This document shows, in pieces, positions 2,461 through 40,055 of a stretch of DNA of 53,313 nt (position 1 is the stretch's first letter; the number at the start of each line of letters is the position of its first letter). The stretch spans positions 1 to 53,313 of the forward strand of contig CAINEZ010000350.1 in the NCBI GenBank assembly GCA_903847905.1. The letters run 5' to 3'. Source of the stretch: an uncultured Bacteroidota bacterium (lineage in GTDB: Bacteria; Bacteroidota; Bacteroidia; Bacteroidales; CG2-30-32-10). The notes under the pieces were generated by a model. That model saw only the letters and a program-made list of their open reading frames with translations, did not search any database and was not told the origin of the DNA. The translations under genes were made by a program, and so were the position numbers.

Positions 2461-2462
2461 AC

Positions 2463-8552: not shown

Positions 8553-8567
8553 AAAAATATAAAGAAT

Positions 8568-10128: not shown

Positions 10129-10152
10129 TAATTTAAATAATGTGTACAGAAA

Positions 10153-13122: not shown

Positions 13123-13197
13123 TATTATCCAACCCTTGGTTCAGGTTCCACCTCCATCGAAATATTAAATGAGTAAATGATTCTAAACAAAATAAAA

Positions 13198-13252: not shown

Positions 13253-13283
13253 GAAATAAGCTGTTTAACTTAAAACTAAGAAC

Positions 13284-17208: not shown

Positions 17209-17244
17209 GTTATAAATAAGTGTTATTTTAATAAAACAACGATT

Positions 17245-17904
17245 ATGGAAAATCAAAATTTAAACTCTGAAAATTCACCAGTATTTGATAGTCATTCTTC
17301 AGTTAAAAATGTAATTGAAAAACGTCGTACATTTATTCCGATTTCTTTTGGTCTAATAATTATTATGTTTTTCTTTACATTCTGTACATTTAGTTGTGGT
17401 GGACAAAAAATAGATTCTGTTTCCGGTATTAACTTAGTAACAGGTACAAGAATAGAAAATAAAGATTCACAACAAAACCAAAGCCAAAACAATAATAATA
17501 ATGAAAAAATACCGGCAAATATGTGGGCATTTTTGGCATATAGTGCAGCGATAGTTGGTGCGATTTTCTTTTTATTTATAAAGAAAAAGGAAAGTTTAAT
17601 CGGTGTTATTGCAGGTGCCACTGGAGTTACTTCCTTGATAATATTACAAATTGTAATAAAAGGCGATGTTTATGGAAAATATAAAGACTCAATTACTGCG
17701 GATTTTAAATTTGGGTATTGGGCAGCTTTAATTTTATTTATTGTTGCAGGTGTATTATGTTTACTCCAATTAATAGAGGAGAATAAAACAAGCAAAACAT
17801 TAAGCCCAGTTAACAAATTGAAAAAATATTGTACTAACTGTGGAAAAGAATTAGAAAATAATTTTACTGGGCAGTTTTGTAAAAATTGTGGAAATAAAAT
17901 TTAA
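17245..17904 (+). CDS. membrane protein with C-terminal zinc ribbon
   Basis: TM helices and a Q/N-rich loop, then KYCTNCGKELENNFTGQFCKNCGNKI. Confidence 0.7.
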   Translation: MENQNLNSENSPVFDSHSSVKNVIEKRRTFIPISFGLIIIMFFFTFCTFSCGGQKIDSVSGINLVTGTRIENKDSQQNQSQNNNNNEKIPANMWAFLAYSAAIVGAIFFLFIKKKESLIGVIAGATGVTSLIILQIVIKGDVYGKYKDSITADFKFGYWAALILFIVAGVLCLLQLIEENKTSKTLSPVNKLKKYCTNCGKELENNFTGQFCKNCGNKI

Positions 17905-17919
17905 TTCAATAATAATCCT

Positions 17920-19608
17920 ATGAAAACATGCACTAATTGTAGTATTTCTTATCCCGATGACAAAAAGTTTTGTAAGAATTGTGGAAATCCATTGGTAGAA
18001 ACAGCTACTCAGGAAAATAAGGAAATTCTAAAAAAGAAGGTTGTAGTTAGGATACCTGATAAGAAACAGGCGAATAAAAATGATGATATACAAAGGATGG
18101 CTGATTTGTCTGAAATAGCAATATCTAAAGATGATTATGATGAAGCACTACTACTTATTAATAAAGGCCTTTTGATTGATCAGAATAATAAAAGCATTTT
18201 AGTAAAAAAAGCTGAGCTTTTATTTAAGATGAAAAATGAAACGGAATGTATTTCAACATGGAATAAAGTGTATGAATTAGATCCTGAAAATGTTTCCGCC
18301 TGCTTATTTCTTGGAATAGAAGCTGTGAAGTTTGAGGACTTTCAAAAAGCTTGCAATTTATTAGAATTGGTTATTTCGAAATCAAAAAATGAAAATGAAA
18401 AAAGCACTGCAATGTTCTATTGTGCATTTTCCATACTTAGACTAAATGTAGAAGATAAACGTCTGCCTTTTTTTATAATTCACTCAAAACTGGACTCATA
18501 TTTTGATACAGCCGATTCGTATCAAAAAAACATACTTGAAGAGCTATTATTTTTTTATGGTGATTATAATGTGCAGCAGAAAAACTACGAATCAGCAATT
18601 TATAATTTTGAAACGGCTTACCAATTAAATAAGGACAACAAATTTACATCTTTGATTGCTAATGCTTATTATAAACTGGCTAAGAACAAATTTGATTTAG
18701 GTGAAAGAAAAAATTCCAGAATAAATATTGAAAAAGCTCTCGCGCTTTTCCCAGGAAACAAAGAATATAGAAGTCTTCTCGAAAAGATTATTATACTTCA
18801 GAAAAAGAAAAAGAGAAAACTTATTATTGGGATAATTGTTGTAATGGTTTCAATAATATTAATATTGGTTGGTATATGGGTAAGCACTTTCTTGATTGAA
18901 AAAAATGCTTGGGATAAAGCACTAAGTGAAAACAAAATCGATTCCTATCAGAAGTATCTAAATACCTATCCCAACGGAAAATATATTGACGAAGCAAATC
19001 AAATGATATCTAAAACAGAAGCGATAATGATCGATTCTGTTGCCGAAGCAATTTTCGAAAGTATTCCAGATGCTAAAAAAAATACAATTACCATTAATTC
19101 AAAAGTAGAAGATATTTTAAAAGCTATTGGAAAAACAAATGAAGCTCTCCCTAACAAGAATAGTGGTGTTAATTCTTTTTCTACGGAGGAAAAAATATCA
19201 AAAAATATCATAAGTTCTGTTACTTATGGATTCAATTCTGATATTAAAGAGCCTATTAAAAAGATCACGGGTAAAAATTGGTATGGTGAACCAACATTCA
19301 TTATTTCCGGTTATCAAAATTCCACCAAAGCTTTATTTGATTCTTTTGATGAACAAATAAGACTTGATTCACAATTTGCAAGTAAAACGGAAGCAATATT
19401 AAAAGCAATTTGTGATAAAATAGAAAAAAGTGGATTTTCAAATTATTCTAAACAACAACAAAATAGTGATATAAAATGCTTTATTAACGAAAATGCTATT
19501 ATTATTGTAAAGAAAAGTGATAATTTGATTATAATTAGATATAATAATACAAATTTTATAGATTATTCAGATTTGTTACAAAGAGCAAAAGCAGGTATAA
19601 TTTACTAA
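17920..19608 (+). CDS. N-terminal zinc ribbon / TPR / TM / extracytoplasmic domain protein
   Basis: MKTCTNCSISYPDDKKFCKNCGNPL. TPR-like helical repeats cover about 250 aa. TM IIGIIVVMVSIILILVGIWVSTFLI, then the juxtamembrane module NAWDKALSENKIDSYQKYLNTYPNGKYIDEA. Confidence 0.75.
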   Translation: MKTCTNCSISYPDDKKFCKNCGNPLVETATQENKEILKKKVVVRIPDKKQANKNDDIQRMADLSEIAISKDDYDEALLLINKGLLIDQNNKSILVKKAELLFKMKNETECISTWNKVYELDPENVSACLFLGIEAVKFEDFQKACNLLELVISKSKNENEKSTAMFYCAFSILRLNVEDKRLPFFIIHSKLDSYFDTADSYQKNILEELLFFYGDYNVQQKNYESAIYNFETAYQLNKDNKFTSLIANAYYKLAKNKFDLGERKNSRINIEKALALFPGNKEYRSLLEKIIILQKKKKRKLIIGIIVVMVSIILILVGIWVSTFLIEKNAWDKALSENKIDSYQKYLNTYPNGKYIDEANQMISKTEAIMIDSVAEAIFESIPDAKKNTITINSKVEDILKAIGKTNEALPNKNSGVNSFSTEEKISKNIISSVTYGFNSDIKEPIKKITGKNWYGEPTFIISGYQNSTKALFDSFDEQIRLDSQFASKTEAILKAICDKIEKSGFSNYSKQQQNSDIKCFINENAIIIVKKSDNLIIIRYNNTNFIDYSDLLQRAKAGIIY

Positions 19609-19703
19609 TTTATTGAATAAATCCTAATTATATGACAAATTAAAAGGATTTTATATTTGCTTTAATAAATTAAAATGATTATTAATTTAATAGATTGAAA
19701 ATT

Positions 19704-20963
19704 ATGTACAAAAAAATTTCTTTTTCCATTGTATTTATTATTTCACTTAATTGTGTTAGCTTTTCACAAAATTTATTATTGGATATTCAGACTAAGAATT
19801 ATGAGCAAGCAAATTCGTATTTAATAAACAAGAAGAGTGGATGGAAATTTATTTCATCTGGTGTTAATTCTGACTTTTTTAATTACAACTATTATAAATG
19901 GTCATGTGATTATAATGCGAATACTAATGAGAATGATAGTTGGCTTAGTTTATGTCAAAAACCGGGTTATAAAAATGCAGTAATTTACAATACAACTAGT
20001 GAAAAATTCAAAATTTTCAAATCAACTATATCTAATGATAGTCATTGGAAATTTGTTGAATCAAGCCTAGATAAAAACGGGTTTGACCATATTTATTATA
20101 GTTGTTTAAACTTTTATATCGAATTTGTTGCATTGGAAAACAACCAGATATTGTTGTATAACAGTCAGGAAATTAAACAACAAATAGTAGAGAAAGAAAG
20201 ATCAGAATTTGTTGCTGATTCTATCGCTAAATTAGCTGAAGAAAAACGGATTAGAGACAAATATATACTGGATTCGATTATCGCAATCAAAGCTAAAAGG
20301 GAAAGTGATTCTATTAGGGAAGTTTTAAGAATTGAAGCAGCAATTGAGAAAAGAAATGTTCAAGGAAAAACCTATAACCTTCGGGATTTTGATATCTATA
20401 ATAAAATTTACTCAGGCATTATTACCGCAACTGCTGATTATTTAAAAACTATTCCATATGGAAAACGAATTAATGCAGTTTATAAAATCAATATATTAGT
20501 TGATACAAATAATATAGCTACTATTGAACCGGTTAATGACAATGGAAGTAATATCCCTTCTGAACTTTTAAGCTATCTTATTAAGTCATGTCAAACTTAT
20601 TATAATTCTTATCCTCGTATTAAGGGATATCATGTAAAAGCGGAAACAGATCTTTTATTGCCCATTGTTTACGAACAGGGTTCAGTAAAATTGTTTAAAA
20701 AAAAGAATGGAAAAATTAATTATAATAGAGGTAATCCTAGCCAGGAAATACATGGCGACATATATGGCAAGTTAAATAGCAAAGGCGTGTATTTTTTTGA
20801 TTATACTGAGCAGAAAATTGATAATAAAAGTAGCAATACTGTAACTCTGACTAATTATAAAAAAACAACCGTATTTCGTACTATTACAACAGTTTTTGGA
20901 AGTATCATCGGAATAGGAGGTTTGGTAACTATAGCTGTAATTACAGGAGCATTCTCCCAATAG
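19704..20963 (+). CDS. exported protein with C-terminal TM anchor, unknown function
   Basis: The track start at 19695 is TTG; the ATG at 19704 gives MYKKISFSIVFIISLNCVSFSQ (signal peptide). C-terminal TM TVFGSIIGIGGLVTIAVITGAF. Confidence 0.65.
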   Translation: MYKKISFSIVFIISLNCVSFSQNLLLDIQTKNYEQANSYLINKKSGWKFISSGVNSDFFNYNYYKWSCDYNANTNENDSWLSLCQKPGYKNAVIYNTTSEKFKIFKSTISNDSHWKFVESSLDKNGFDHIYYSCLNFYIEFVALENNQILLYNSQEIKQQIVEKERSEFVADSIAKLAEEKRIRDKYILDSIIAIKAKRESDSIREVLRIEAAIEKRNVQGKTYNLRDFDIYNKIYSGIITATADYLKTIPYGKRINAVYKINILVDTNNIATIEPVNDNGSNIPSELLSYLIKSCQTYYNSYPRIKGYHVKAETDLLLPIVYEQGSVKLFKKKNGKINYNRGNPSQEIHGDIYGKLNSKGVYFFDYTEQKIDNKSSNTVTLTNYKKTTVFRTITTVFGSIIGIGGLVTIAVITGAFSQ

Positions 20964-21035
20964 AGTTGGTTTAGAATAAGTTAAAAAAAATGCGATATAG
21001 TTGTATGAAAAGTTACTTAATGAAATAAAATAAAG

Positions 21036-22010
21036 ATGAAGACATGCACTAAATGCCTAATTTCTTATTCAAATAATAAAAAGTTCTGCAAGAAATGTGG
21101 GGCGATTTTAATTCCAGAAAATAATATTATTGAGCAAGAGGAGAATAATAATACAAATAACTTTATTAAAGAAAGCGGTTTAATTCCTGATGTTGAAACT
21201 TCTAAAGACCAAGTTTCACAAAAAGGGAATAAAAGTATCTTAAAGAAAATAATTATTATCGGCACCTCTTTTATTGCTGTATTTATTGTTGTAATTATCC
21301 TAGTCTTTTATTTCAGACAAAAAAGTGCCTGGAATGAAGCTGAACAAATTAATTCGATCAATTCATTTCAATCATACATAAATGATTATCCTACTGGAAG
21401 ATATGTTGATGAGGCTAAATTGAAAATAAAGCTAATCAATGAGTCTATTATAATACAAAGACAGCAAGCTATTCAAGACTCTATTGCTCATGTTCAAAAA
21501 GCAATTGCTGATTCTATTGCAGCAGTTGGGAAACAATCAAATATTACAATAAATCAAAAACCTTCCACATTGGCAATAAAAGGCATTAAAGTAAATATTC
21601 GTTCTTTTCCATCTTTAAGGTCAAATGTTATTTTTCAATTAAATACAGGTGATGTTTGTTATATAGTCGAAAAGGGTAATCTTGAAAATATAAATGGTAC
21701 ACCGGATTATTGGTTTAAAGTAAATTTCAACGGTAAAATAGGCTGGGTATTTGGGACGTTTACTAGTCTATCAACAATTAGTACCTCTTCAAATTCTTCT
21801 ACCTATAATGGAAATAAAACAGGAAAAGCTATTTATGATAGAGTTTATTTTTATTCATCCCCAAATTTAAACTCTCGATTGAATACATATATTGTTAGTG
21901 GCCAAAATGTTGAAATTATTTCGAATAATGGAGATTTTTGGAAAGTATCTTTTACATTTAATAATAAAACAACTAATGGTTTTATTAGGAAAATGGATCT
22001 CAGTTTGTAA
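21036..22010 (+). CDS. N-terminal zinc ribbon / TM / SH3b-like domain protein
   Basis: MKTCTKCLISYSNNKKFCKKCGAIL. TM, then SAWNEAEQINSINSFQSYINDYPTGRYVDEA. The SH3b-like segment is VNIRSFPSLRSNVIFQLNTGDVCYIVEKG...YWFKVNFNGKIGWVFGTF, with a second similar unit. Confidence 0.7.
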   Translation: MKTCTKCLISYSNNKKFCKKCGAILIPENNIIEQEENNNTNNFIKESGLIPDVETSKDQVSQKGNKSILKKIIIIGTSFIAVFIVVIILVFYFRQKSAWNEAEQINSINSFQSYINDYPTGRYVDEAKLKIKLINESIIIQRQQAIQDSIAHVQKAIADSIAAVGKQSNITINQKPSTLAIKGIKVNIRSFPSLRSNVIFQLNTGDVCYIVEKGNLENINGTPDYWFKVNFNGKIGWVFGTFTSLSTISTSSNSSTYNGNKTGKAIYDRVYFYSSPNLNSRLNTYIVSGQNVEIISNNGDFWKVSFTFNNKTTNGFIRKMDLSL

Positions 22011-22087
22011 ATATTATTAAATTGTAAATCAAATTAGATTAGTTTATTATTAATGCAAGAATTTATGTTAATCTTATTTAATACAAT

Positions 22088-23149
22088 ATGAAGACATGTC
22101 CAAGATGCCATATTCAATATCCTGAGGATAAGAAATTTTGTAAGAAATGCGGCGAATTGCTGGTTTTAGATTATTCAACAGAATCTTCAAAGATTAAATC
22201 AGAAATTAATCCTATAAAACAAATCACAGTTAAAGAGACTGTTCTAGCAAATAGCAACAGTAAAAAAATAATATTAAAGGCTATATCTATAGGAGTTTCT
22301 GTTATAGTGGTTGCCTTGATTGCAATTTTTATGATTATTTACTTTAAACAAAATAGTGCCTGGAAGGATGCAAAAGAAAAAAATTCAATTAATTCTTTTC
22401 AAGCTTATATCAATGATTATCCTAATGGAAGGTATGTTGATGAAGCAAAAAGTATTATTAAAGCAAAAGATGACTCTATTGCAGGTGCGCAGATGATTAT
22501 GGCTATTCATGATTCAATTTCCGCTGCAAAAAAATCGTTAGATAATGGGCAGGGTTTAAATATACTAATTGGAACATGGAAGGGCCCTTTTAATAAAAAA
22601 ACAATGGAATTGGTAGTTAATAGTGTTATTGATAATTCAGTTGCAGGCTATGATGTCTTAAATGGCAAAAAAAGACCATTTACAGGTACTTATTATGAAA
22701 ATGGTAATAGTTATAGTTTGACTTTAAATGAGCCTGGTGATGATAATGGAGATGGGAAATTTGAATTGAGCATTGACAAATCATCAAATATTATTACGGG
22801 ATATTGGAAACTATTTAAAGGTTCATTGAATTATAGTTTTAGTTTTAATAAAATAAATACCATTAATATTAACCAAAATGGAAATTCAAATAATAATAGT
22901 ATATATGGCCTTTATCCACAAGCCTCTGAAAAATTGCTTTATGCATCAGATTTGAGAGACCTAAACAAATATGATTTGAAAATTATGCGAAATGAAGTTT
23001 TTGCTCGCCATGGTTATATTTTTAAGACACCTGATATGATTTCATACTTCCAAAAGCAATCGTGGTATCGAGGTCAGTATAATGATGTAGCCTCAATGCT
23101 TACAATAATTGAAAAGAAGAATATTGAATTAATAAAAAAGTATGAATAA
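22088..23149 (+). CDS. N-terminal zinc ribbon / TM / YARHG-domain protein
   Basis: MKTCPRCHIQYPEDKKFCKKCGELL. TM, then SAWKDAKEKNSINSFQAYINDYPNGRYVDEA. C-terminal MRNEVFARHGYIFKTPDMISYFQKQSWY (YARHG motif). Confidence 0.75.
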   Translation: MKTCPRCHIQYPEDKKFCKKCGELLVLDYSTESSKIKSEINPIKQITVKETVLANSNSKKIILKAISIGVSVIVVALIAIFMIIYFKQNSAWKDAKEKNSINSFQAYINDYPNGRYVDEAKSIIKAKDDSIAGAQMIMAIHDSISAAKKSLDNGQGLNILIGTWKGPFNKKTMELVVNSVIDNSVAGYDVLNGKKRPFTGTYYENGNSYSLTLNEPGDDNGDGKFELSIDKSSNIITGYWKLFKGSLNYSFSFNKINTININQNGNSNNNSIYGLYPQASEKLLYASDLRDLNKYDLKIMRNEVFARHGYIFKTPDMISYFQKQSWYRGQYNDVASMLTIIEKKNIELIKKYE

Positions 23150-23903
23150 ATTTATTTTAATTAGTATAATATTCCTTTTGGGTTGCTCATTTAATGAAGC
23201 AAAAAACCAAGAAGCGAAAGATTGTAAAAATGTTATAAAATCTCCCCCAACTGGTAAATGTGTTGATTTTAATTCACTAAATAATAAAATACGTGATTGT
23301 TTAATTTCAAAGGAGGATGCTTTGAAACAAATTCAAATTTTGCTACCAGAATTAAAAATATATTTTTACAAAAATGGTGGCCAGGATTTTGCTAAATCTA
23401 ATTGGGTTTTTCCAGTTCAAGGTTATACTGCAAAATCTATCGGTGGGTCAAATGGAAGCGGGTACATTGATACAGGTTACGATTATTTTGATGGCAACAA
23501 ACATAAAGGCCATCCAGCGCAAGATATCTTTATTTTTGATAAAAATCAGGACTGCATTAGTGATATAACAAAAAAGCCTGTAAATGTTCTTTCGATGACA
23601 GGGGGGATTGTTATTGCGACTGAAACAATATGGGATTCGACCAGCGACTTAAGAGGAGGAAAATATATTTGGATTTATGACCCATCTACTAATAACTTTT
23701 TTTACTATGCACATAACAGTAAAGTTTTGGTTCATCCATGCAATATCGTGAAACCAGGTGACACAATAGCCACGGTTGGTAGAACGGGTTTAAATGCTTT
23801 TAAAAAACGATCACCTACACATCTTCATTTAATGCAACTTAAACTTGATGATAGAAGTTATCCCAGCCCGGTTAATTGTTATAAGGATTTAATATTATTA
23901 TAA
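23142..23903 (+). CDS. M23-family metallopeptidase lipoprotein
   Basis: Lipobox FLLGCS. HxxxD in KGHPAQDIF and HxH in PTHLHLM, plus GDTIATVGRTG. The start overlaps the previous stop by 8 nt (ATGAATAA). Confidence 0.8.
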   Translation: MNKFILISIIFLLGCSFNEAKNQEAKDCKNVIKSPPTGKCVDFNSLNNKIRDCLISKEDALKQIQILLPELKIYFYKNGGQDFAKSNWVFPVQGYTAKSIGGSNGSGYIDTGYDYFDGNKHKGHPAQDIFIFDKNQDCISDITKKPVNVLSMTGGIVIATETIWDSTSDLRGGKYIWIYDPSTNNFFYYAHNSKVLVHPCNIVKPGDTIATVGRTGLNAFKKRSPTHLHLMQLKLDDRSYPSPVNCYKDLILL

Positions 23904-23928
23904 TTAGTTGAACCTAATATTATTGAAT

Positions 23929-25623
23929 ATGAAAACATGTACTAAATGTGAACTTTCATACGCTGAAGGCACCAAGTTTTGCAAAAAATGTGGCAGCCTT
24001 TTAGTTTCTTCTTCCAATCTCAATTATATTAATACAGATCAAAATACAGAATCAAAAAATAAGATTGGATTAACTAAGAATATTGTGCCAAATAAAAAAT
24101 TTAAAATATTTGCGTTATCTTCTATTTCTTTTTTGTTAGTAGTTATTGCGATTCTATTAATATGTTATTTTGTAGAAAAGAGATCAATAGATTCTATGCT
24201 TAAAAACGTAAATGATTGTTTGATTATTACAAATGAGAATTTCAATAAAAAAGTCGAGGGTACATATGCGCAACTTGAAAAACAGTTGCTTATGAATAAG
24301 GCTAAAGTTCTTCCTACTTATGAAAAAGCTATGCAAGCTAAAAAAATAACACAGGAATTAGTTGATTATATTGAAAAGCTTAAAATAGAATTCGATTCAA
24401 AGAAAAAAATATATAGTTTTCTTGAAACACGCTCTGGTGGCAAAGAAAATGCTTCCTTATTGAAGGAAAAAATTGAACTTTATAAATCAGCAATACTTAA
24501 TCTGATAGAACCAAAATACAGAAATATTGTAAACCTAGGTTTATATACTGATGAATCTTTTAAAGACAAAAATGGGAAGGAAAGAAATTGGGAAATGCAA
24601 AAGTTTTATCAAATAAATAACATAACATTTATTATTACTTTGAATGGCCTTATTGGCGAAATAAAAAATGCTGAATTTAATGTTATAAATCAATTATTAG
24701 CAGATGTTAGTATAGAAGACTTTAAGTTTAATAATATTGATGCAAGAGTAATTTCTAAAAAAAATTATTTGTTAACTGGTGATACTTATGAAGCAGATAT
24801 TTTTGTTGCAGCTTATGATACTAAACAAAAACCTGAGATTATTGTTGGTTCTGGAGTTGATTTAAATTCTCTTGCTATATCAGGTGAACAAATGAAAGTA
24901 GAAAGTGTAGGTGGTATCGGAAAACTTAAACTTCCTACTAATGGACCTGGCTTAAAACAATTTGGTGGCGTAATTAAAATTATTGGAGTTGATGGGACAT
25001 TAAAGGCATATCCTTTTAACAGTGAGTATTTTGTTGGAACACCTTCTGCAATAATTTCTCCTTCAAAAATGAATGTTTTTTATATCGGTGTTGATAATCC
25101 TGTTTCTATTTCAGTTCCGAGTGCTTCTAACGAACAAGTAACAGCTACTATAAGCGGTGGTGGGGGATCAATAACTAAAGTTGCTGGCAATGGTACATAT
25201 AATGTAAAAGTAACTAATAAGGGAGAATGTACAATAAATGTAAATGCAAAAATGGGAAATGCTTCTCGATCAATGGGATCCATGAAATTTCGTATTAAAT
25301 CGATTCCAGACCCTGTGGCATACGTGGCTGGGGTAAAAGGAGGTCTGGTTAATAAGTCAACTTTACTTAATTCTGGAGGTGTGATTCCTAAAATGGATGG
25401 TTTTGATTTCAATTTATATCCAACAATAGTAAGTTTTACATTAACCATGAATAAATCAGGAGATTTAATTTCAGAATTTACCACTGGTAGTAGATTTACT
25501 CCAAAAATGATACAAATGCTAAATTCAGTCAGTAAAGGTCAGAAAGTTTTTTTTGAAGATATTAAAGCAAAAATGCCTGATGGCATACGTAATCTTGGAG
25601 CAATAGCATTAAAAATAAATTAA
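23929..25623 (+). CDS. zinc ribbon fused to a GldM/PorM-like protein
   Basis: The track start at 23908 is TTG; the ATG at 23929 gives MKTCTKCELSYAEGTKFCKKCGSLL. A single TM follows. The GldM-like N-terminal region is ITNENFNKKVEG...ITQELVDYIEKLKIEF. The C-terminal regions resemble F. johnsoniae GldM as I recall it: KMNVFYIGVDNPVSISVP, FRIKSIPDPVAYVAG, MDGFDFNL and GQKVFFEDIKAKM. Confidence 0.75.
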   Translation: MKTCTKCELSYAEGTKFCKKCGSLLVSSSNLNYINTDQNTESKNKIGLTKNIVPNKKFKIFALSSISFLLVVIAILLICYFVEKRSIDSMLKNVNDCLIITNENFNKKVEGTYAQLEKQLLMNKAKVLPTYEKAMQAKKITQELVDYIEKLKIEFDSKKKIYSFLETRSGGKENASLLKEKIELYKSAILNLIEPKYRNIVNLGLYTDESFKDKNGKERNWEMQKFYQINNITFIITLNGLIGEIKNAEFNVINQLLADVSIEDFKFNNIDARVISKKNYLLTGDTYEADIFVAAYDTKQKPEIIVGSGVDLNSLAISGEQMKVESVGGIGKLKLPTNGPGLKQFGGVIKIIGVDGTLKAYPFNSEYFVGTPSAIISPSKMNVFYIGVDNPVSISVPSASNEQVTATISGGGGSITKVAGNGTYNVKVTNKGECTINVNAKMGNASRSMGSMKFRIKSIPDPVAYVAGVKGGLVNKSTLLNSGGVIPKMDGFDFNLYPTIVSFTLTMNKSGDLISEFTTGSRFTPKMIQMLNSVSKGQKVFFEDIKAKMPDGIRNLGAIALKIN

Positions 25624-25724: not shown

Positions 25725-27002
25725 ATGGCAGTAATAGACGTAGTCCGATGGGCGCCACAAGGTGACAAAACCATTTATGCCTGGAAATTTCGTGAGAGAA
25801 ATCGTGCATCAAACGATGGATTGAATTTAAGTACTTATACTCAGCTTATAGTTCAGGAATCGCAAGAAGCCATTTTATTTTCAAAGGGTCAGATTATTGG
25901 AAAATTTGGACCGGGAAAGCACACCTTAAACACCGAAAATCTTCCTTTACTAAGAAGGTTATACGGATTGCCTTTTGGTGGTAAGAATCCATTTACGGCA
26001 GAAGTGTGGTTTGTAAATAAACTTCAGCCTTATAATATTGAATGGGAGATCGACAGAATGGACATACATGATGTAGATTACAATACAGGTATCCCGCTTG
26101 TGGCTAATGGCTTGTATGGCCTTAAAATTAGTGATGCAGAGCGATTTTTAATAAAGATAGTTGGCGCAAGGGATGAATTTGATGAAATTGATTTGACCGA
26201 ACAGTTTAAAGGAGAGTTTGTAACTAAGACAAAATCAACTTTGATGCAGTTCATGATCCAGAACAAAATTGGTATTAAGCAAATTTCAGCACATCTGGAT
26301 AGCATTTCAGATCATTTGCGTACAATAATGCTTCCATTTTGGGAAAATATCGGCTTTGAATTAACGAAATTCTATATAACAAGCATACAAGTTGATAGTT
26401 CTACTGAAGTTGGACAAAGAGTACAAGATGCAATTTCGAGACAAAGTACACAGAATATTGTTGGGGCAACATATCAGCAGACACAAGCATTTGAAATCGC
26501 CAAAGATGCAGTTAACGGAATGTCGAATGGAAGTGGCGGCCTATTGGGAGCTGTTGTTGCAGCAAATATGATGGGCGGAGTTGGTGGCGCAGGCGGTATT
26601 ATGCAACCTCAATATAATCAGCCTACATTTAATTCAAATAATGGCGGTATGCAAGGTGGAAATCAGCAAACACCTACTCTTCCAAGAGAAGTTTATTGTT
26701 CTAATTGTGCAAAGAAATTTGCGAGTAATCTAAAATTTTGTCCTTTTTGTGGTGATGAATATTGTCCATGCCCAAAGTGTGGAACAGATAATGATAAAAG
26801 TGCGAAAAGATGTGTTAGTTGTGGTCAAACCTTGATGATTGAACAAAGTTTGTGTCCAAACTGTAATTCATCTGTTCCTGCTGGTAGCGGTTTTTGTGGT
26901 AATTGTGGAAAGCCTCTTGCTGAAAATAAATGTACAAGATGTGGTGCTCAATTAACACCAAGCATCAAATTTTGCCCAAAATGTGGTCAAAAAAATGGAT
27001 AA
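25725..27002 (+). CDS. SPFH/Band-7-like protein (YdjI/COG4260 type) with four C-terminal zinc ribbons
   Basis: The N-terminus VIDVVRWAPQGDKTIYAWKF...QLIVQESQEAILFSKGQIIGKFGPGKHTLNTENLPLL...NPFTAEVWFVNK matches the YdjI-like SPFH pattern. A Gly/Gln-rich linker follows. The ribbons are CSNC..CPFC, CPKC..CVSC, CPNC..CGNC and CTRC..CPKC. Confidence 0.75.
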   Translation: MAVIDVVRWAPQGDKTIYAWKFRERNRASNDGLNLSTYTQLIVQESQEAILFSKGQIIGKFGPGKHTLNTENLPLLRRLYGLPFGGKNPFTAEVWFVNKLQPYNIEWEIDRMDIHDVDYNTGIPLVANGLYGLKISDAERFLIKIVGARDEFDEIDLTEQFKGEFVTKTKSTLMQFMIQNKIGIKQISAHLDSISDHLRTIMLPFWENIGFELTKFYITSIQVDSSTEVGQRVQDAISRQSTQNIVGATYQQTQAFEIAKDAVNGMSNGSGGLLGAVVAANMMGGVGGAGGIMQPQYNQPTFNSNNGGMQGGNQQTPTLPREVYCSNCAKKFASNLKFCPFCGDEYCPCPKCGTDNDKSAKRCVSCGQTLMIEQSLCPNCNSSVPAGSGFCGNCGKPLAENKCTRCGAQLTPSIKFCPKCGQKNG

Positions 27003-27075
27003 CACAGATAATATTATTGTATGAAATTTTTTGTTGAGTTGAAAATTAATAGTTTATATTCTAACAGACAATATT

Positions 27076-27795
27076 ATGAAACCAAATAAACTTTTCACTA
27101 TTTTGCTTCTACTATTTGGAGAAGCATTGATTATTATAGGTTTTTTATATTTTGCGAAAAACCTTGAACTCAAAATATTAATACTAAATATAGCTGTAAC
27201 ATCGATTTTATATTTTGTCTGTTTTGTCTACTTTTCAGATAAAATCATTCCAATTGTTGATATAAAAGAGAAATCTCATAGTTCAGTTGGTTCCCTCGGA
27301 ATAAAATGGGTCTTTGTTACCATATATGCAATACTGGCCATTGGGGCTATGCTAATATTAAACACAGTTAAACCACTTGGTTTTACAGGGCAAATTATTA
27401 TTCAAGGAGTAATTTTATTCATTCTATTGCTCGGGATATATTTTTCTATTTACGCTTCAAATAAAGTCCATGAAGTTTATACTGAAGAGAAGCAAAATCG
27501 CAGTCGTATTGGTGATATGAAAAAAGCAACAAACGATGTAAAGTTGAGGATAGACCAAATGAAAGGTATGCCAGCAGATTTAATTGTGAGAATTACTACA
27601 TTATTGGATAATATGCGATTCATTTCTCCTGGAGATAACAATGATGCAATTGTTTTAGAAACAGATTATTTAAAAGAAATCAAAACAGTTCATGATTGTT
27701 TGTTTGAAATTCCCATTAATTATGAAAAGATTACGGAGAATATTTCCAATTGTGAGCGAGTCTATAATGAAAGAAAAAAAGTGTACTCAAATTAA
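27076..27795 (+). CDS. 4-TM membrane protein with helical cytoplasmic C-terminal domain
   Basis: Four hydrophobic helices in the first 125 aa or so, then a charged helical domain. The next ATG lies 23 nt downstream. Confidence 0.65.
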   Translation: MKPNKLFTILLLLFGEALIIIGFLYFAKNLELKILILNIAVTSILYFVCFVYFSDKIIPIVDIKEKSHSSVGSLGIKWVFVTIYAILAIGAMLILNTVKPLGFTGQIIIQGVILFILLLGIYFSIYASNKVHEVYTEEKQNRSRIGDMKKATNDVKLRIDQMKGMPADLIVRITTLLDNMRFISPGDNNDAIVLETDYLKEIKTVHDCLFEIPINYEKITENISNCERVYNERKKVYSN

Positions 27796-27818
27796 TAATA
27801 ATCTTAAACTTCAAAAGC

Positions 27819-30230
27819 ATGAAAGGTAAAATTTTTGCGGAATCAAGTAATATCTACCAGGATCAGGCGAAGATATTATTTAACTATTATCAGCAAATGG
27901 CTGAAAAGATAGTTCTAGAAGAAGAAAACACGGAAAAAGAGATCGCTAAACTGGAAGAAGAAAAAACAGTCTTAGAAAAAGATTTATCAAATGCCAAACT
28001 TTGGAAATGGGTGCTTTGCATTTTTATCATCCCTTTTATTTATTTTTTATTAAGAGAAAAAAATCTAATTACCCAAATAAGTGCACTTGAAGAAAGGATA
28101 GCTGAATATCAAAAACTGCACAAAGAAATATTCAGAGATTACAAAGTCAGTAAATTAGGGATAGCCTATGTGCCTGTTGCTAGTCAATTTAAATATGAAA
28201 ATAAGAGCTTTATTGTTGACCATACAGGAATGGTTGGAGAATCAGAGGTAAAGCTACAATTATCAAAACAAAATGATTTATTGATCGAAAAAATTGAAGA
28301 TTTGGAAAAATTGTCTTCAGAGGCCCCATTGGTTGAAAGTTCAAATGAAACTGAGGAAATTGATACTGAGAAATATTCACTTTCTATGCAGCAATTAAAT
28401 CAGCATGATTATTTTGGAAATCTGGAACGCTCACTAAGGACTATTTCATACTGTATGGATGATTTGGATGTTACATCAGTTTCATTACCTCTGGTTGCTA
28501 ACAATAGCCCTTACCTAAAATTTATCAATGAATATTCAACAACAGAGATCCCAGAGGGAGCACCTGTTTTTGAAGTTTTCGATACTAAAAAATATAATGA
28601 TGATATTGCAAAATTTCAGGAACTTAATAAATTAAAAGATTCACTTTCAAAAAATACTGCACAATTTGAAGATGTTTTAAAGGGTCTTATGGTTACTATG
28701 GCTAATTCTGTTCAGGCAATTTCGGCACTTAAAGTTGCTTCAACAGATAAGATTATATTTGAATCAAATAAAGTATTATTCAAAATTTTAAAATCCCCTT
28801 ATAATCATTACTCCCCAGTATTAGAAGCCGGAGAAATTGAAAGAATCAGAAATGAAAACTTTAATTATGGAGATTCGGTGCAGGATTATGTTCCTTTTCA
28901 ATTAAAAGATAGTTCGCGTGTAAAATACAATTTGTTATCCGATGCATGGGTTGCAGAAGATGGAAGTTCAACGAACTTCCCTTTTGGAATTCATCAGATA
29001 CACGAAGAAATTGTCGCTCCTATGGTACAGAATTTAATGAATGAGACGCGTATTGAAAGATTGAAAATATACAACCATATTAAAGACCAAAAGATAAGCT
29101 ATCTGAATAAATGGCACCAGGATACAGAAGATTTTTACGGTAGAAATCGGGCCGAAAGTGCAGATTTAATCAATTTAATGCGAGCAAGTTTGAGGGATTA
29201 CATAGCCGCCTATAATACATTTGCCGCACTTAAAAATACTGAAAATAGCATGACGGCATCAAAAGTATCAAGGGATTCTGATATCGAAGGAGAAAATGAT
29301 AATTCAGTTGGTTTATTAGATTCAACTGTTGTAACAGTAAATGATAATTCCGCTGAAGTATTGGCTGCTTTTGACATGCAATCAAAAGAATTTCAAAATG
29401 TTCAACTTGATTTTGAGGATTATATGGAGCGCCTCAAAGAGGATATTGATCAAAAAGCAGAAAAATTTGAGCATATTGATTATTATGATGCCCTCCTTCG
29501 AGATGGAAATTCAAAAGATACTGCTGTTGCAACAAATGAAATGCAAAAATTAGATGAAAGGAGAAAACCACTTATTTCGGTTAATCCTCTTTTTGCAAAA
29601 AATTCAGAAATGCCACCGATACCAAGCGTTGAAGATATTACATATGAGCACATCTCACTCAACTTGCCGGTAATAGCCAGAAATGCCCTTAAGGATCTTG
29701 ATGATGATTTAAGTACTGAATCAATAAATGACGATAATAATGGAGGACCAAAGATTGGAAGTCCCATTGAAAATAATGACGTAAAAGATGATGTTGAATC
29801 TGGCACATCCATCGAAAAATACTTTTGTACTGATTGTGGAGCAGAGTTAACATCGGATACTACTATTTGCACGGATTGTGGGGCCAAGATTGATACTGTT
29901 AATGAGGATAAAATGAATGAAGCCGAAAAAGTTCCCAACACAATAAATGAAGAACAGAATTTGGACGAAACTAAACAGTTTTTCTGCCCTGAATGCGGTT
30001 CAAAAGTCACATCAGATTCAAAACATTGTCCGGAGTGTGGAATTGAATTAAAGGTTGAAGAATTTGAGGAAAATGATATTAATCAGGAAAATCAAAGTGA
30101 AGAAGAAGCAGGACAATTTTTTTGCCCTGAATGTGGTATCAAGGTGACAACAGAAGTAACAATTTGTCCGGGTTGCGGCACTGAACTTAGTTTTGATGAA
30201 GACGATGAAGATAAAAAAATTAATAATTAA
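27819..30230 (+). CDS. 803-aa coiled-coil protein with one hydrophobic segment and three C-terminal zinc ribbons
   Basis: N-terminal coiled coil (EKEIAKLEEEKTVLEKDL), then the hydrophobic segment LWKWVLCIFIIPFIYFLL. The C-terminus carries YFCTDCGAELTSDTTICTDCGAKI, FFCPECGSKVTSDSKHCPECGIEL and FFCPECGIKVTTEVTICPGCGTEL, separated by acidic linkers. No P-loop is seen. Confidence 0.75.
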   Translation: MKGKIFAESSNIYQDQAKILFNYYQQMAEKIVLEEENTEKEIAKLEEEKTVLEKDLSNAKLWKWVLCIFIIPFIYFLLREKNLITQISALEERIAEYQKLHKEIFRDYKVSKLGIAYVPVASQFKYENKSFIVDHTGMVGESEVKLQLSKQNDLLIEKIEDLEKLSSEAPLVESSNETEEIDTEKYSLSMQQLNQHDYFGNLERSLRTISYCMDDLDVTSVSLPLVANNSPYLKFINEYSTTEIPEGAPVFEVFDTKKYNDDIAKFQELNKLKDSLSKNTAQFEDVLKGLMVTMANSVQAISALKVASTDKIIFESNKVLFKILKSPYNHYSPVLEAGEIERIRNENFNYGDSVQDYVPFQLKDSSRVKYNLLSDAWVAEDGSSTNFPFGIHQIHEEIVAPMVQNLMNETRIERLKIYNHIKDQKISYLNKWHQDTEDFYGRNRAESADLINLMRASLRDYIAAYNTFAALKNTENSMTASKVSRDSDIEGENDNSVGLLDSTVVTVNDNSAEVLAAFDMQSKEFQNVQLDFEDYMERLKEDIDQKAEKFEHIDYYDALLRDGNSKDTAVATNEMQKLDERRKPLISVNPLFAKNSEMPPIPSVEDITYEHISLNLPVIARNALKDLDDDLSTESINDDNNGGPKIGSPIENNDVKDDVESGTSIEKYFCTDCGAELTSDTTICTDCGAKIDTVNEDKMNEAEKVPNTINEEQNLDETKQFFCPECGSKVTSDSKHCPECGIELKVEEFEENDINQENQSEEEAGQFFCPECGIKVTTEVTICPGCGTELSFDEDDEDKKINN

Positions 30231-30250
30231 TTTTCCCAAATTTAGTAATT

Positions 30251-31165
30251 ATGGCAACATTTAATTATACAGTCGATACTCAGCCAATGGCTGAGGAAAT
30301 GAGCAGTGTTTCGCGACATGTTAACGTAACTACCGGTGCTGTTGTAGCAATGCAAACTTCATTAATTGCCGCAGAAGCAAGTGCTGCTGATCACATTTGT
30401 GAAAATGTTAATAAGGGTTTTTATTCTCTTATCCGGTCTCAGATTTCACAAAAAATGGCAAAGTTAAAAAGTGATGTAGACTCCCATTTAATGCAATTAG
30501 TTCAACAAAAAAAGGCCTTATTAAGTATTAAAAGCAGAATGTCTCGTGATTATAATATGATAGCAAATCGGTACAATAAACTCTTCAATAGCCTAAATGC
30601 GAATCTTAAACACAGGGTTTTTGAACTCGACAAGCCAACAATTGATTTTGCATGCAAGGAAATAGATAAAGTTTCGAACCGTACAAAATATTTAACGGCG
30701 ACAATTCCTATAACTCAATTAGAATCAATTTCGTTGAGCCAAAAAATAATTGCTTCAAATGTAAAGAAAAGAGGCTTTAATGTAATAAATTCCATGAAAG
30801 GCTTTATTCATGAAATGAACCTCCAAAAAAAGTTAACGGACCAGGTATTAATTGATAATAATAATATTATTAAAGTCGGAACATCATCTATCCCAATTTT
30901 AGTTTATGAATGCAACAGGGATAGAACAGAAAATAAAAATATTGATATTATTGTGCCAGTAGTTGAATTAGACAATATCACTGTATGTTCTATAAAAAAT
31001 AAAGCCTATAGTGAATTCTCGCAATTAAATTGGAATAATGAAACTAAACCAGCTCCAGAGGTATATGAAGAGTTCAGTAAATTATTGGCAATATCCTCTA
31101 AATCATCCCAAATAAAGGATTTAGCATTACAATTGTTTCAATCTAACAAGTATCAAACCATTTAA
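30251..31165 (+). CDS. unknown protein, paralogue A of tandem pair
   Basis: It shares with the next gene VDTxP...ENVN...A.V...GFYxxIRSxISQ...HLM.L......K..M..DY..I..RY.K.F..LN..L..R..ELD.P. The central region is helical. Confidence 0.65.
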   Translation: MATFNYTVDTQPMAEEMSSVSRHVNVTTGAVVAMQTSLIAAEASAADHICENVNKGFYSLIRSQISQKMAKLKSDVDSHLMQLVQQKKALLSIKSRMSRDYNMIANRYNKLFNSLNANLKHRVFELDKPTIDFACKEIDKVSNRTKYLTATIPITQLESISLSQKIIASNVKKRGFNVINSMKGFIHEMNLQKKLTDQVLIDNNNIIKVGTSSIPILVYECNRDRTENKNIDIIVPVVELDNITVCSIKNKAYSEFSQLNWNNETKPAPEVYEEFSKLLAISSKSSQIKDLALQLFQSNKYQTI

Positions 31166-31176
31166 TTGTTACGGAT

Positions 31177-32208
31177 ATGAGTTATACAAGAAGATATAGT
31201 GAAACTGTTTCCAAAACGATAACTGTTTCTTATCCAGAAGTCAAAGGAGGGGGGAGTAAATCTGTAACAGTTGATATTCCAATTGATGTGAATATCCATG
31301 TTGACACCAATCCATTTGATCAGAGCGTTGAACATTGTGGGGAAAATGTAAATCTACTTACTGCTGCTGTAGTGGCAACAGAATCTGCTGAAATTATCTC
31401 TAAAAAGAAAAATTCGGTTAAAGTTGCAAATTCTATTATTGGCGGTTTCTATGGTTATATTCGTTCAGAAATCAGCCAGCAAATTGCTGAATTGAGTCAA
31501 AACATTGATGCTCATTTAATGCATCTTAAAGAATTGGCACAATCCTGTTTTGCGAAAAAGAAACAGATGGAAACAGATTATCATAGAATTACCAGTCGGT
31601 ATGTAAAGATTTTTGAAGACTTGAATAACGAGTTATCTAATCGAATACATGAATTGGATAGGCCTTCATTTGTTTTTAAAAAAGAAACTGATAATCAAAA
31701 AATCAGAACTACCGACAACCAATTGGTTAATACAGTTGCAATAGGAGGGGCTGAAAGTGGAAGTTTACAGTCAAGAATTGGTGCATCATTAGCCAAAAAA
31801 CGCGCATTTGATGCTTTATGCAAGGCAAAGTCATTTCTATTACAGCAAAAGCAATTAAATACTACCATTCAGCGGAGTATGTTTAATGAAAGTGTTACTA
31901 ATTCAATTTATACTCCTATTTGTTTTATTGAAAAAAATAATGTTGGCAATCAATCTGATAAAACTGTCTTTACTCTGGAATACTTATCTATGCTTAAGGA
32001 AAATCTACAAAAAATTGCATTGATTGAGCATTTTTCTGCAAAATCAATAACATGGAATAAACTTTCTCAAGATGATCAAAAATCTATAGGATTATATTTT
32101 GACACTGAGCTTAATAATAATTCTGCAAATGATATACATTCCGAACGTGTCAGGGATATGATACGGAAGTTAGCAAACCTAAGTTCAATTAAAGTAATAA
32201 ATTATTAA
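31177..32208 (+). CDS. unknown protein, paralogue B of tandem pair
   Basis: GFYGYIRSEISQQIAELSQNIDAHLMHLKELAQSCFAKKKQMETDYHRITSRYVKIFEDLNNELSNRIHELDRP aligns with the same region of 30251..31165. The intergenic gap is 11 nt. Confidence 0.65.
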   Translation: MSYTRRYSETVSKTITVSYPEVKGGGSKSVTVDIPIDVNIHVDTNPFDQSVEHCGENVNLLTAAVVATESAEIISKKKNSVKVANSIIGGFYGYIRSEISQQIAELSQNIDAHLMHLKELAQSCFAKKKQMETDYHRITSRYVKIFEDLNNELSNRIHELDRPSFVFKKETDNQKIRTTDNQLVNTVAIGGAESGSLQSRIGASLAKKRAFDALCKAKSFLLQQKQLNTTIQRSMFNESVTNSIYTPICFIEKNNVGNQSDKTVFTLEYLSMLKENLQKIALIEHFSAKSITWNKLSQDDQKSIGLYFDTELNNNSANDIHSERVRDMIRKLANLSSIKVINY

Positions 32209-32219
32209 AATATAATATT

Positions 32220-33194
32220 ATGAAAGAATTAAAAGAAGTCCGGTATAACGAAACAAATATTCAACTTAAAGATAATTTAGTAAAAGGGTCAATTTTACCC
32301 GAAAAAATTGCTGAACTCGATAGAACAATAACCATTCAAGGTAATGCAATAATTGAGGGTGCCGTTTATGCCCATAAATTGGAGATTCAGCAAGGTGATA
32401 CTGAAATCCATGGAGCAGTGTTTACCCAACTTGAAATGTATGTTAATAGTGAGGCAAAAGGGAATATCTTTTTCAAAAAGAGTGTTGGTTCTGCAAATTC
32501 TATTGTTTCCAGAGCACTAAATTGTCATTTAATGTTTTACTCTGATATAAATGCTAAAAGTGTAACCCTATACAATGCATTTATAGCTGGCAGTATTTAT
32601 GCAGATGAAATAATTTTACAAAACTGCGTGGTTATTGGAGGTGTTTTTGCAACACAGAACATAGATATTACTAATTCTATTGTTGGGACATTTAATACCC
32701 CTTCAATAAAAGTAGCACAACAACTATGGCTTTTACTACCAAGTGCGTTTTCAATTGAAAAAATTATTACTGTACCCGGCACAAAGTTCTACAATTTAAG
32801 TTTAGCAGATCTTGGGTCCCTATATAAAGGGATGGTACAGTCAGTTAATTCTGGTAAGATAGAGATGAATATTGATACTGACGAAGTGAAAACGACACTG
32901 ACTAGTGAAGATATGCAGAAGACGATACGGAGTTATACTGTAGTTGGAAAAGTATTAGCAGCTGATCTATTAGATTTTGATAAATTTCAAAATCATTTTT
33001 TACTAACTGCTGCCAGTTTAGGTTCTCAACTACTTAAGAATTATGATCTGGGAGTTGATGATAAAGGGAAACCAGTTACGCTTTCATTTGAAAAAATCAG
33101 GGATTTCTTTTTTGGAATATTACATGGTAAAATTGAAGTGCAAGAAATTGATGGGAAGTTTGATATCTCTGATATTACAGGAAAATTCAATTAA
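32220..33194 (+). CDS. beta-helical repeat protein, bactofilin-like (putative polymer-forming)
   Basis: Periodic small/hydrophobic pattern ITIQGNAIIEGAVYAHKLEIQQGDTEIHGAVFTQLEMYVNSEAKGNIFFKKSVGSANSIV...IAGSIYADEIILQNCVVIGGVFATQNIDITNSIVG, typical of bactofilin or Toastrack-like beta-helices. It is the last gene of the operon. Confidence 0.45.
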   Translation: MKELKEVRYNETNIQLKDNLVKGSILPEKIAELDRTITIQGNAIIEGAVYAHKLEIQQGDTEIHGAVFTQLEMYVNSEAKGNIFFKKSVGSANSIVSRALNCHLMFYSDINAKSVTLYNAFIAGSIYADEIILQNCVVIGGVFATQNIDITNSIVGTFNTPSIKVAQQLWLLLPSAFSIEKIITVPGTKFYNLSLADLGSLYKGMVQSVNSGKIEMNIDTDEVKTTLTSEDMQKTIRSYTVVGKVLAADLLDFDKFQNHFLLTAASLGSQLLKNYDLGVDDKGKPVTLSFEKIRDFFFGILHGKIEVQEIDGKFDISDITGKFN

Positions 33195-39927: not shown

Positions 39928-39979
39928 GATGGTTTTTTTATTTTGAATTGAAAATTAGTTATTTTTGAGGTACAATAAA

Positions 39980-40037
39980 GTGGAGACCAGAAACCACTTA
40001 AAAAAACGGGGCGGAACTGAAAAGCCAGATGAGTAGG
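39980..40037 (+). promoter_or_regulatory. conserved upstream element, copy J (short form)
   Basis: GTGGAGACCAGAAACCAC-TTAAAAAAACG-GGGCGGAACTGAAAAGCCAGATGAGTAGG. It ends 18 nt before the ATG at 40056. Confidence 0.7.
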
Positions 40038-40055
40038 AAATTTATAATAAGAAAA

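Follow-up and report, generated by a model that had tools for sequence, protein, structure and literature searches.

A conserved, horizontally transferred six-gene cassette of Bacteroidota encoding a predicted YdjI/SamI-type SPFH protein, orphan families and a weakly bactofilin-like protein

We analyzed a window of 53,313 nucleotides (nt) of DNA, positions 1 to 53,313 of contig CAINEZ010000350.1 (assembly GCA_903847905.1) from an uncultured Bacteroidota bacterium, and within it a cassette of six genes that we designate G1 to G6. An earlier annotation of this DNA, which we refer to as the original prediction, had described the genes as a tight operon of structural-looking proteins. Its coordinates, strand and gaps all hold: six open reading frames (ORFs) lie co-oriented on the + strand at 25725-33194, separated by 73, 23, 20, 11 and 11 nt (Table 1). 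We found 992 homologs of G4, 1865 of G6 and more than 2877 of the conserved core of G3. Given that such families count hundreds to thousands of homologs each, G1 to G6 are real genes and not chance ORFs. Almost all of the best 120 matches each for the G3 core, G4 and G6 carry no annotation.

The six genes belong to a single conserved module, all in the same orientation and with little space between them. For this comparison, one genome per species was scanned; 171 species have a close relative of G4, and 80 loci, each designated by L and a number, were fetched. Nearly all of the fetched loci are from Bacteroidota (Bacteroidales, Flavobacteriales, Chitinophagales and Sphingobacteriales), with other carriers represented by metagenome-assembled genomes (MAGs) labeled Melioribacteraceae, Chloroherpeton and, in one case, Saccharibacteria. 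The G1-G6 order is identical in approximately 60 of the 80 loci, with median gaps of 18, 20, 13, 10 and 12 nt. Eight loci (L039, L046, L047, L064, L069, L074, L076 and L081) have G3-G6 alone despite ample upstream sequence, and thus the core of the cassette is G3-G6, to which the SPFH gene and the gene for a protein with four transmembrane (TM) segments are a frequent add-on. An ORF of approximately 265 amino acids (aa) located 5' of G3 in these four-gene variants was considered as a replacement for G1 and G2 and rejected, since the proteins inspected (L039, L046, L069 and L074) are unrelated, differ by locus, and are of secreted or outer-membrane type.

The arrangement persists at much lower sequence identity. 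Five distant members were looked up, in which the cassette proteins are 30-50% identical to those of the window overall and G4, measured in four of them, is 31-50% identical. Gene order is kept, as far as the contig reaches, in four of the five distant loci (pig-gut contig, LAHS01 included). A Treponema sp. MAG (L085, 4971-12150) has G1-G5 in order and no G6 homolog, followed after a gap of 377 nt by a Cas4 gene, and a further member, L089, has G4-G6 located 3' of an uncalled 2.4-kb gap. Homologs of 40-55% identity are present in L084-L088, among others. Cultured carriers are Labilibaculum filiforme 59.16B, Bacteroidales bacterium CF and Dysgonomonas termitidis. Strong selection acts on all six families, and conservation this strong is what one would expect for the parts of a multi-subunit assembly. 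The original prediction had called for a study of gene-neighborhood conservation and had named, among the outcomes that would count against it, a lack of synteny and assignment of the unknown proteins to characterized enzyme families. The same gene set and order in approximately 60 loci, together with the cassettes at 30-50% identity, answer the first point, and neither of these adverse outcomes was seen.

Table 1. Position of the cassette genes and their features in the window
Feature	Position	Strand	Description
G1	25725-27002	+	425 aa, YdjI/SamI-type SPFH protein (predicted)
G1 SPFH (Band_7_1) domain, aa 39-226	25839-26402	+	PF13421
G1 low-complexity linker, aa 263-322	26511-26690	+	
G1 four-zinc-ribbon array, aa 325-422	26697-26990	+	
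G2	27076-27795	+	239 aa, 4-TM protein
G3	27819-30230	+	803 aa
G3 conserved core, aa 1-630	27819-29708	+	
G3 hydrophobic/amphipathic segment, aa 60-78	27996-28052	+	
G3 tail (variable, acidic, three zinc ribbons), aa 631-803	29709-30230	+	
G4, first paralog	30251-31165	+	304 aa
G5, second paralog	31177-32208	+	343 aa
G6	32220-33194	+	324 aa
G6 bactofilin-like β-helical N-terminal half (predicted), about aa 35-165	32322-32714	+	
G6 orphan C-terminal domain, about 155 aa	32727-33191	+	

The cassette also moves between lineages. Its proteins are 97-100% identical between genomes labeled Chitinophagales, Labilibaculum (Marinilabiliales), Dysgonomonadaceae and Bacteroidales; for Lutibacter, Sphingobacteriales and a GWF2 Bacteroidetes MAG, the corresponding identity is 90-98%. 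The DNA similarity between such loci starts approximately 60-290 nt 5' of G1 and stops approximately 40-360 nt 3' of G6. Given near-identity across orders and classes and similarity that ends close outside the genes, it is the cassette alone that has recently been transferred horizontally. It transfers as an autonomous unit, provided that the MAG taxonomy labels are correct; one of the loci is from an isolate genome. The flanking genes vary from locus to locus. Among 148 immediate neighbors, taken as raw counts with no background rate, the commonest Pfam family is Phage_integrase (n = 4) and the remainder are scattered and mostly housekeeping genes; PADLOC matches among them are ThsB-TIR (2), LeoA (2), a type I methyltransferase (1) and also PDC. 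No copies of the cassette were found in IMG/VR, in the INPHARED (GenBank) phages or among the PLSDB plasmids, and thus there is no sign of carriage by a satellite or prophage. Within the conserved unit, we found no relaxase, coupling protein, transposase or recombinase.

None of the six proteins has a Walker A or HExxH motif in a motif scan, and no profile search of Pfam, NCBIfam or PADLOC assigned an enzyme family to the unknown members, in agreement with the original reading that no enzyme motif is visible. Scans of PADLOC, NCBIfam and PHROGs added nothing substantial for G1-G6. PADLOC-DB 2.0 returned no credible match for any of the six, the sole match being that of the G3 ribbon tail to a methyltransferase model (0.0099). 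Likewise, hhalign detected no homology between the cassette families when G3 was compared with G4/G5 or G6 with G3. For G2, G3 and G4/G5, no relative was found in Pfam, NCBIfam, PADLOC or PDB. Membrane or membrane-proximal features are present in three of the six proteins.

G1 matches Band_7_1 (PF13421) at aa 39-226 with E=3.9e-35 and 121.8 bits, compared to a gathering cut-off of 24, and the same match is recorded for G1 in those fetched loci for which Pfam results were reported. It has no TM segment. In its linker, Gly accounts for 25% of the residues, Asn for 13% and Gln for 10%. Behind the linker, eight CxxC motifs make up four C-terminal zinc ribbons, with matches to Zn_Ribbon_1, DZR and Zn_ribbon_3, and exactly four ribbons are present in 57 of 57 distinct G1 orthologs. 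A Band_7_1 match above cut-off, the lack of a TM segment and the C-terminal ribbons identify G1, by its domain architecture, as a YdjI/SamI-type SPFH protein, as had been proposed at the outset. Its SPFH domain has no match among PDB sequences, so that sequence comparison detects no solved structure for this subfamily. G2 was likewise correctly called a 4-TM protein. Its hydrophobic segments are at aa 6-24, 34-52, 76-94 and 107-125 and are followed by a tail of approximately 110 aa that we read as cytoplasmic; 47 orthologs have four TM segments and ten have three. It is the least conserved member of the cassette, with 24-52% identity, and it is always located between G1 and G3. No credible Pfam, NCBIfam or PADLOC match was obtained for G2 beyond a sub-threshold one to UbiA, and it has neither an NfeD nor a TPM domain.

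G3 consists of a conserved core and a variable tail. The core (aa 1-630) is 62-81% identical across Bacteroidota and 42-44% identical in distant cassettes, and is laid out as an N-terminal helical stretch, a hydrophobic segment and a strongly conserved orphan region of approximately 550 aa. G3 was originally described as a giant coiled coil. Helix is predicted with moderate confidence for residues 12-105 or so only, and the many invariant Pro, Gly, aromatic and polar or charged residues of aa 1-630 make it unlike a plain coiled coil; the hydrophobic segment, three ribbons and acidic tail noted along with the coiled coil are all present. Invariant residues of G3 include E396, E397, N419, W432, H433, R444 and an NxYSP motif at 329-333. 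Neither Pfam nor PDB yielded a relative of G3, even with a diversified alignment, and none of 33 members matches PspA_IM30 or Snf7 in Pfam. An AlphaFold model of aa 1-650, computed from 38 sequences of 75-85% identity, is unusable (predicted local distance difference test score [pLDDT] 47.9, predicted TM-score [pTM] 0.20). In the window protein, the hydrophobic segment is a single stretch of approximately 18 residues with a Pro at its center. In distant homologs the segment spans two TM lengths, and in 11 of 66 orthologs it is missing and an amphipathic Trp/Phe-rich stretch stands in its place. The tail is acidic in all orthologs, with a median of 44% Asp+Glu and a length of 11-189 aa; in the window it contains 26% Asp+Glu and six CxxC motifs, corresponding to the three ribbons. 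Zinc ribbons are found on G3 in only 4 of 66 orthologs, which makes those of the window an exception. Since the hydrophobic segment is variable and the ribbons and acidic tail are of cytoplasmic type, we infer that G3 is anchored in the membrane by a hairpin or monotopically, both of its ends being cytoplasmic.

G4 and G5 are true paralogs, as had been suspected of this tandem pair, with 36% identity over 192 aa (BLASTP E=3e-35). A profile search of 1.84 billion representative proteins places at least 613 clusters at 50% identity in their family, throughout which length classes of approximately 300 and 345 aa recur, corresponding to the two paralog types. G5 always follows G4, at a median gap of 10 nt, and has a strand-rich N-terminal extension of approximately 40 aa. 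The AlphaFold model of G4, based on an alignment of 123 sequences, has a pLDDT of 88.7. It shows a conserved N-terminal VDTxP motif and one unbroken helix of 116 residues (aa 11-126), after which come two more helices (128-148 and 158-200) and a small α/β domain (217-303). Residues 50-186 of G5 weakly match PHROG 23309, a phage family of unknown function (E=1e-4); tblastn of G5 in 50,697 phage genomes gave no match and so did not back this up.

The original prediction had suggested that these paralogs, or G3, stand in for PspA or ESCRT-III, and this idea found no support. There is no PspA_IM30 or Snf7 Pfam match in 123 diverse G4/G5 members, and hhalign comparison with E. coli PspA gave probabilities of 0.2% and 0.3%. 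The α1-α2/3 helical hairpin of PspA, Vipp1 and ESCRT-III is absent from the G4 model, which has its unbroken helix instead. Foldseek, which is weak on long helices, returned no significant match for the G4 model, a monomer that may differ from the assembled state; the best matches were E=0.9 in PDB and E=0.044 with a TM-score of 0.16 in BFVD. The PDB library searched presumably holds structures of PspA, Vipp1 and ESCRT-III. When PDB sequences were searched with profiles of G3, G4/G5 and G6, and again with profiles from deeper alignments, nothing below E=0.19 was found.

G6 is the most conserved member, with 64-89% identity. The window protein matches Bactofilin (PF04519) below threshold, at E=0.004 and 17.7 bits compared to a cut-off of 27.9, and this sub-threshold match recurs in 31 of 33 diverse G6 members, with a best E of 2.5e-5. 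Caulobacter BacA (2n3d) is the third PDB profile match of G6 (E=0.59), several orthologs have been named 'CcmA (bactofilin family)' by the Joint Genome Institute, and repeats of approximately 17-20 residues, as expected for the windings of a β-helix, are visible by eye. The N-terminal half thus has a weak but consistent likeness to bactofilins, and G6 as a whole fails both the PF04519 cut-off and the bactofilin architecture. Its C-terminal domain of approximately 155 aa is an orphan and, in the alignment, the most conserved part of the entire cassette. Of the two folds that had been proposed for G6, the bactofilin resemblance therefore stands in this sub-threshold form and Toastrack does not, as no Toastrack/DUF4097-type match is among the 16 families hit by 33 G6 members at E<=1. 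The invariant residues of G6 are D197, D221, D249, N258 and H259. A reading of D197 ... E222-x-K224 in G6 as a PD-(D/E)xK motif was rejected because K224 is not conserved.

In a subset of loci, the cassette is flanked on either side by conserved non-coding sequence. An element of approximately 230 nt begins no more than about 10 nt 3' of the G6 stop codon in L011, L013, L014, L019, L020, L023, L052, L057 and L058, and is absent from the window and from most loci. It is 84-90% identical across at least nine loci, including L014 and L058, the proteins of which are each approximately 55-85% identical to those of the window. The element opens with an imperfect hairpin of approximately 24 bp, five pairs of which show compensatory changes, and has no Rfam match. 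In L014, it occurs at 12978-13225 and also at 5348-5595, as a direct repeat on both sides of the cassette. An ORF of approximately 120 aa following G6 in L013, L014 and L019 overlies the element and was rejected as a gene. On the 5' side, a conserved leader occupies the 160 nt upstream of G1 in L012/L001, L013, L014, L019, L020, L023, L052 and L057. Repeated motifs resembling TTTGCCGACACACA are found in it, along with a TGGCAC...TTTTGC stretch; the spacing is not that of a canonical σ54 promoter.

In the window itself, the region upstream of G1 is AT-rich and unrelated to this leader. A scan for σ70 promoters and terminators and a search for the Bacteroidetes -33/-7 pattern did no better than with shuffled sequence; one TAcaTTTG box lies 56 nt 5' of G1 and is uninformative alone. 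In L091-L093, a GAF-σ54-activator gene (55-1953, - strand) is divergent to the cassette, where G1 is at 2578, an arrangement that recalls pspF-pspA. A σ54 promoter upstream of G1 was rejected, given that there is no canonical site and that the activator is confined to this one lineage.

The surroundings of the cassette in the window contain several features of their own. An unbroken, co-oriented run of zinc-ribbon-tagged genes occupies 16630-25623 (+ strand), encoding ribbon proteins with TPR, SH3 and YARHG domains, an M23 peptidase and a ribbon protein resembling GldM/PorM. In four of these upstream proteins, a near-identical ribbon, MKTCxxCxxSYxxxxKFCKKCG, stands at the N-terminus and is joined to TPR, SH3_3, YARHG or a complete GldM/PorM-like ectodomain. 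The GldM/PorM-like gene lies directly upstream of the cassette (TIGR03517, E=1.6e-65); it is unusual for a GldM-like protein to carry a cytoplasmic ribbon and to have no GldK/L/N-like gene next to it. The original prediction had suggested that these upstream genes and the cassette form one large system, and here it was not upheld: conservation of the cassette does not extend to the GldM-like, TPR, SH3, YARHG and M23 genes, with the exception of L004, the closest relative, in which YARHG/SH3 and M23 homologs are present downstream of the cassette. Genes with an N-terminal ribbon account for 11 of 286 genes near the cassette and 3 of 208 far from it (p=0.09), and lie on the same strand within 200 nt in approximately eight loci. 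The ribbon-tagged genes are at most facultative neighbors.

Elsewhere in the window, a gene for a 797-aa Tubulin_2 protein (PF13809, E=2e-47) at 3998-6391 (+) is directly followed by one for a trypsin-like peptidase at 6409-7167. It is preceded by three ORFs of approximately 380-400 aa without a Pfam match at 83-3602 (+) and a 127-aa ORF at 3607-3990, and the region 83-7167 looks like a separate, uncharacterized system of conflict type. Five copies of the DUF805 RNA motif (RF03081) are on the + strand at 8055-8124, 8466-8558, 10064-10133, 13193-13259 and 39975-40043, all above gathering at 54-86 bits and each just 5' of a + strand ORF; the downstream genes that were scanned encode DUF4852, WG_beta_rep and MORN-type proteins. 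A tyrosine integrase gene at 46517-47761 (-) is followed by approximately 2 kb without long ORFs, and a SprB-repeat protein with a type IX secretion system sorting domain is encoded at 49745-53245, where the guanine-cytosine (GC) content is 0.43, compared to approximately 0.30 over the remaining sequence. It may be that the low-GC 47 kb represents an integrated island; no tRNA was found.

Given these results, our leading interpretation, offered tentatively, is that the cassette encodes an accessory sub-membrane scaffold for envelope protection, which would stabilize or remodel the membrane under envelope stress, possibly including phage attack. The six proteins would form an assembly on the inner face of the cytoplasmic membrane, encoded by an autonomous mobile operon. 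G1, a soluble SPFH protein, would form a ring- or cage-shaped oligomer that G2 would keep at the membrane, by analogy with the recruitment of SamI by SamG and SamH in B. subtilis. G3 would enter the membrane through its hairpin or amphipathic segment, the very long helices of G4 and G5 probably join the two proteins in a heterodimeric rod, and G6 probably polymerizes through its bactofilin-like β-helix. Consistent with such a scaffold are the synteny and tight spacing of the genes, the combination of Band_7_1 and zinc ribbons in G1, the long helix of G4, the bactofilin-like half of G6 and the lack of an enzyme motif.

Several observations weigh against this interpretation. No PspA, PspC, LiaF, Toastrack or other envelope-stress marker was found in or consistently near the cassette, which agrees with the earlier remark that none of the first three is recognizable here. 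No conserved stress regulator was found near the cassette either, the σ54 activator being restricted to one lineage. The SPFH and 4-TM genes are dispensable in eight loci. A patchy spread and recent transfer between orders fit an accessory or conflict function at least as well. Finally, G3 and the C-terminal domain of G6 are conserved in the manner of enzymes and could hide unrecognized catalysis. From the original inference of a membrane scaffold with a role in envelope stress, we thus retain the conserved module with its YdjI/SamI-type G1, and drop the PspA/ESCRT-III analog and the joint system with the upstream genes. No test that we ran showed a PspA-like phage-shock system.

The main rival reading, which we consider doubtful and yet worth taking seriously, is an anti-phage system acting by abortive infection at the membrane, one that would sense a phage-induced perturbation and respond by membrane disruption or sequestration through effectors that are not recognized as such. 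Near-identical proteins in different orders, with shared DNA that ends a few hundred nt outside the genes, differing flanks and a patchy distribution speak for this reading. In several loci, moreover, an integrase or recombinase is among the two nearest genes, and in L001 a set made up of an integrase, HTH_17 and a DUF5906 primase-like gene precedes the cassette; occasional neighbors include a Mrr-SNF2 helicase, ThsB-TIR, LeoA, a type I methyltransferase and Cas4, and in the window the cassette shares its low-GC region with the Tubulin_2/trypsin pair and the integrase. Set against this, the six proteins have no credible PADLOC match, the defense matches among the 148 immediate neighbors are few and scattered among mostly housekeeping genes, the phage and plasmid collections and IMG/VR hold no copies, and all members are strongly conserved, with no hypervariable sensor except for the G3 tail.

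We consider it improbable that the cassette is instead a morphogenetic or cell-wall-positioning cytoskeleton, in which a G6 polymer and coiled-coil adaptors would position envelope enzymes, including ribbon-tagged M23, SH3, YARHG and YkuD proteins. The bactofilin-like character of G6 suggests as much, as do the M23 peptidase and YARHG/SH3 ribbon proteins that adjoin the cassette in the window and in L004, the same-strand ribbon proteins with a TM segment found within 200 nt of it in approximately eight loci, and a YkuD neighbor in L087. Such neighbors are absent at most loci, however, and their enrichment is not significant; a housekeeping determinant of cell shape would not be patchy and freshly transferred between orders. 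The additional 155-aa domain of G6 is also out of keeping with bactofilins, which have a β-helical core with only short disordered flanks (PMC10945521).

A function for a mobile element with none for the host, such as entry exclusion, stabilization or a transfer-associated membrane structure, appears very unlikely. Movement of the cassette as a discrete unit would fit, as would the conserved non-coding sequence on both sides in a subset of loci, with its hairpin element after G6 that is duplicated upstream of G1 in L014. The conserved unit nevertheless includes no relaxase, coupling protein, transposase or recombinase, the flanking element is absent from the window and most loci, and no plasmid or phage copies were found. 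Least probable is that the cassette is one arm of a larger system specific to the window, joined to the upstream ribbon-tagged and GldM/PorM-like proteins and linked to type IX secretion or gliding. In its favor, those co-oriented genes carry ribbons of the same type, at the N- or C-terminus, and the one directly upstream matches GldM/PorM. Against it, the GldM-like protein matches other loci (L004 and L062) only via its N-terminal ribbon and the cassette sits in unrelated neighborhoods at approximately 60 loci and also in Treponema.

Returning to the sub-membrane scaffold, G3-G6, usually together with G1 and G2, might add up to an undescribed bacterial machine, although we would not yet count on it: a 630-aa protein anchored by a hairpin, a heterodimeric rod of long helices and a polymer of bactofilin type with a new C-terminal domain, spreading across Bacteroidota and into Spirochaetota. 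Such a machine would represent a new form of membrane remodeling or membrane-based immunity that has no known enzymatic effector and is independent of PspA and ESCRT-III. SPFH proteins are found across cellular life, and their bacterial partners and roles are poorly understood. In the cassette, a predicted YdjI/SamI-type SPFH protein is tied to a constant set of four orphan families and to a protein resembling bactofilin, and transfer of the cassette between orders indicates that the module is portable and self-sufficient. If it is indeed a device for membrane protection or membrane-based immunity, it would provide a PspA-independent route and the first functional context for several large protein families. 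Since the cassette is present in genomes from cultures, the question is directly testable.

In SPFH-NfeD pairs, the SPFH gene is directly followed by a gene for a small multi-TM protein. The succession of G1 and G2 resembles this and other SPFH-partner pairs (HflK/C-FtsH, QmcA/YqiK with NfeD and flotillin-YqiJ/YuaF), among which operons of band-7 or flotillin genes with YqiJ/YuaF have been described (PMC11237479). It differs from them in that G2 has neither NfeD nor another recognized domain, G1 belongs to the TM-less Band_7_1 branch, and there is no protease or AAA+ partner. Similarly, the N-terminal half of G6 resembles bactofilins (BacA/CcmA), including those of bactofilin-M23 modules, and an M23 gene is located two genes upstream in the window; unlike a bactofilin, G6 falls below the Pfam cut-off and has its extra conserved C-terminal domain, and the M23 neighbor is not conserved. 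Pfam scans of the members found no Vps4, ESCRT-III, adaptin-appendage or GOLD components in the cassette.

The closest comparison is with the pspA-samGHI (pspA-ydjGHI) operon of B. subtilis. There, YdjI combines a band-7 domain with a C-terminal zinc ribbon (PMC11237479), and SamG and SamH recruit the cytosolic SPFH protein SamI, which stabilizes PspA foci (bioRxiv 10.64898/2026.02.06.704340; in part, PMC8581546). G1 has the SamI architecture, with Band_7_1, no TM segment and a C-terminal ribbon, and it is encoded beside membrane proteins that could recruit it. Unlike YdjI/SamI, G1 carries four ribbons behind a Gly/Asn/Gln-rich linker. No PspA_IM30, TPM or YpeB-like Pfam match is found in G2-G6, so that the cassette lacks both a YdjH-like partner with a TPM domain and a YdjG-like partner with two ribbons, an NTF2-like fold and also a TM segment. 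The families of G3-G6 are not known from Psp neighborhoods and occur also without an SPFH gene. As judged by sequence comparison, this core matches no described system and is new in the sense that it has no detectable relative by sequence or, for G4, by structure as well. Since only G1 is common to the cassette and pspA-samGHI, and the four core genes correspond to no system described to date, we place the cassette outside the known kinds.

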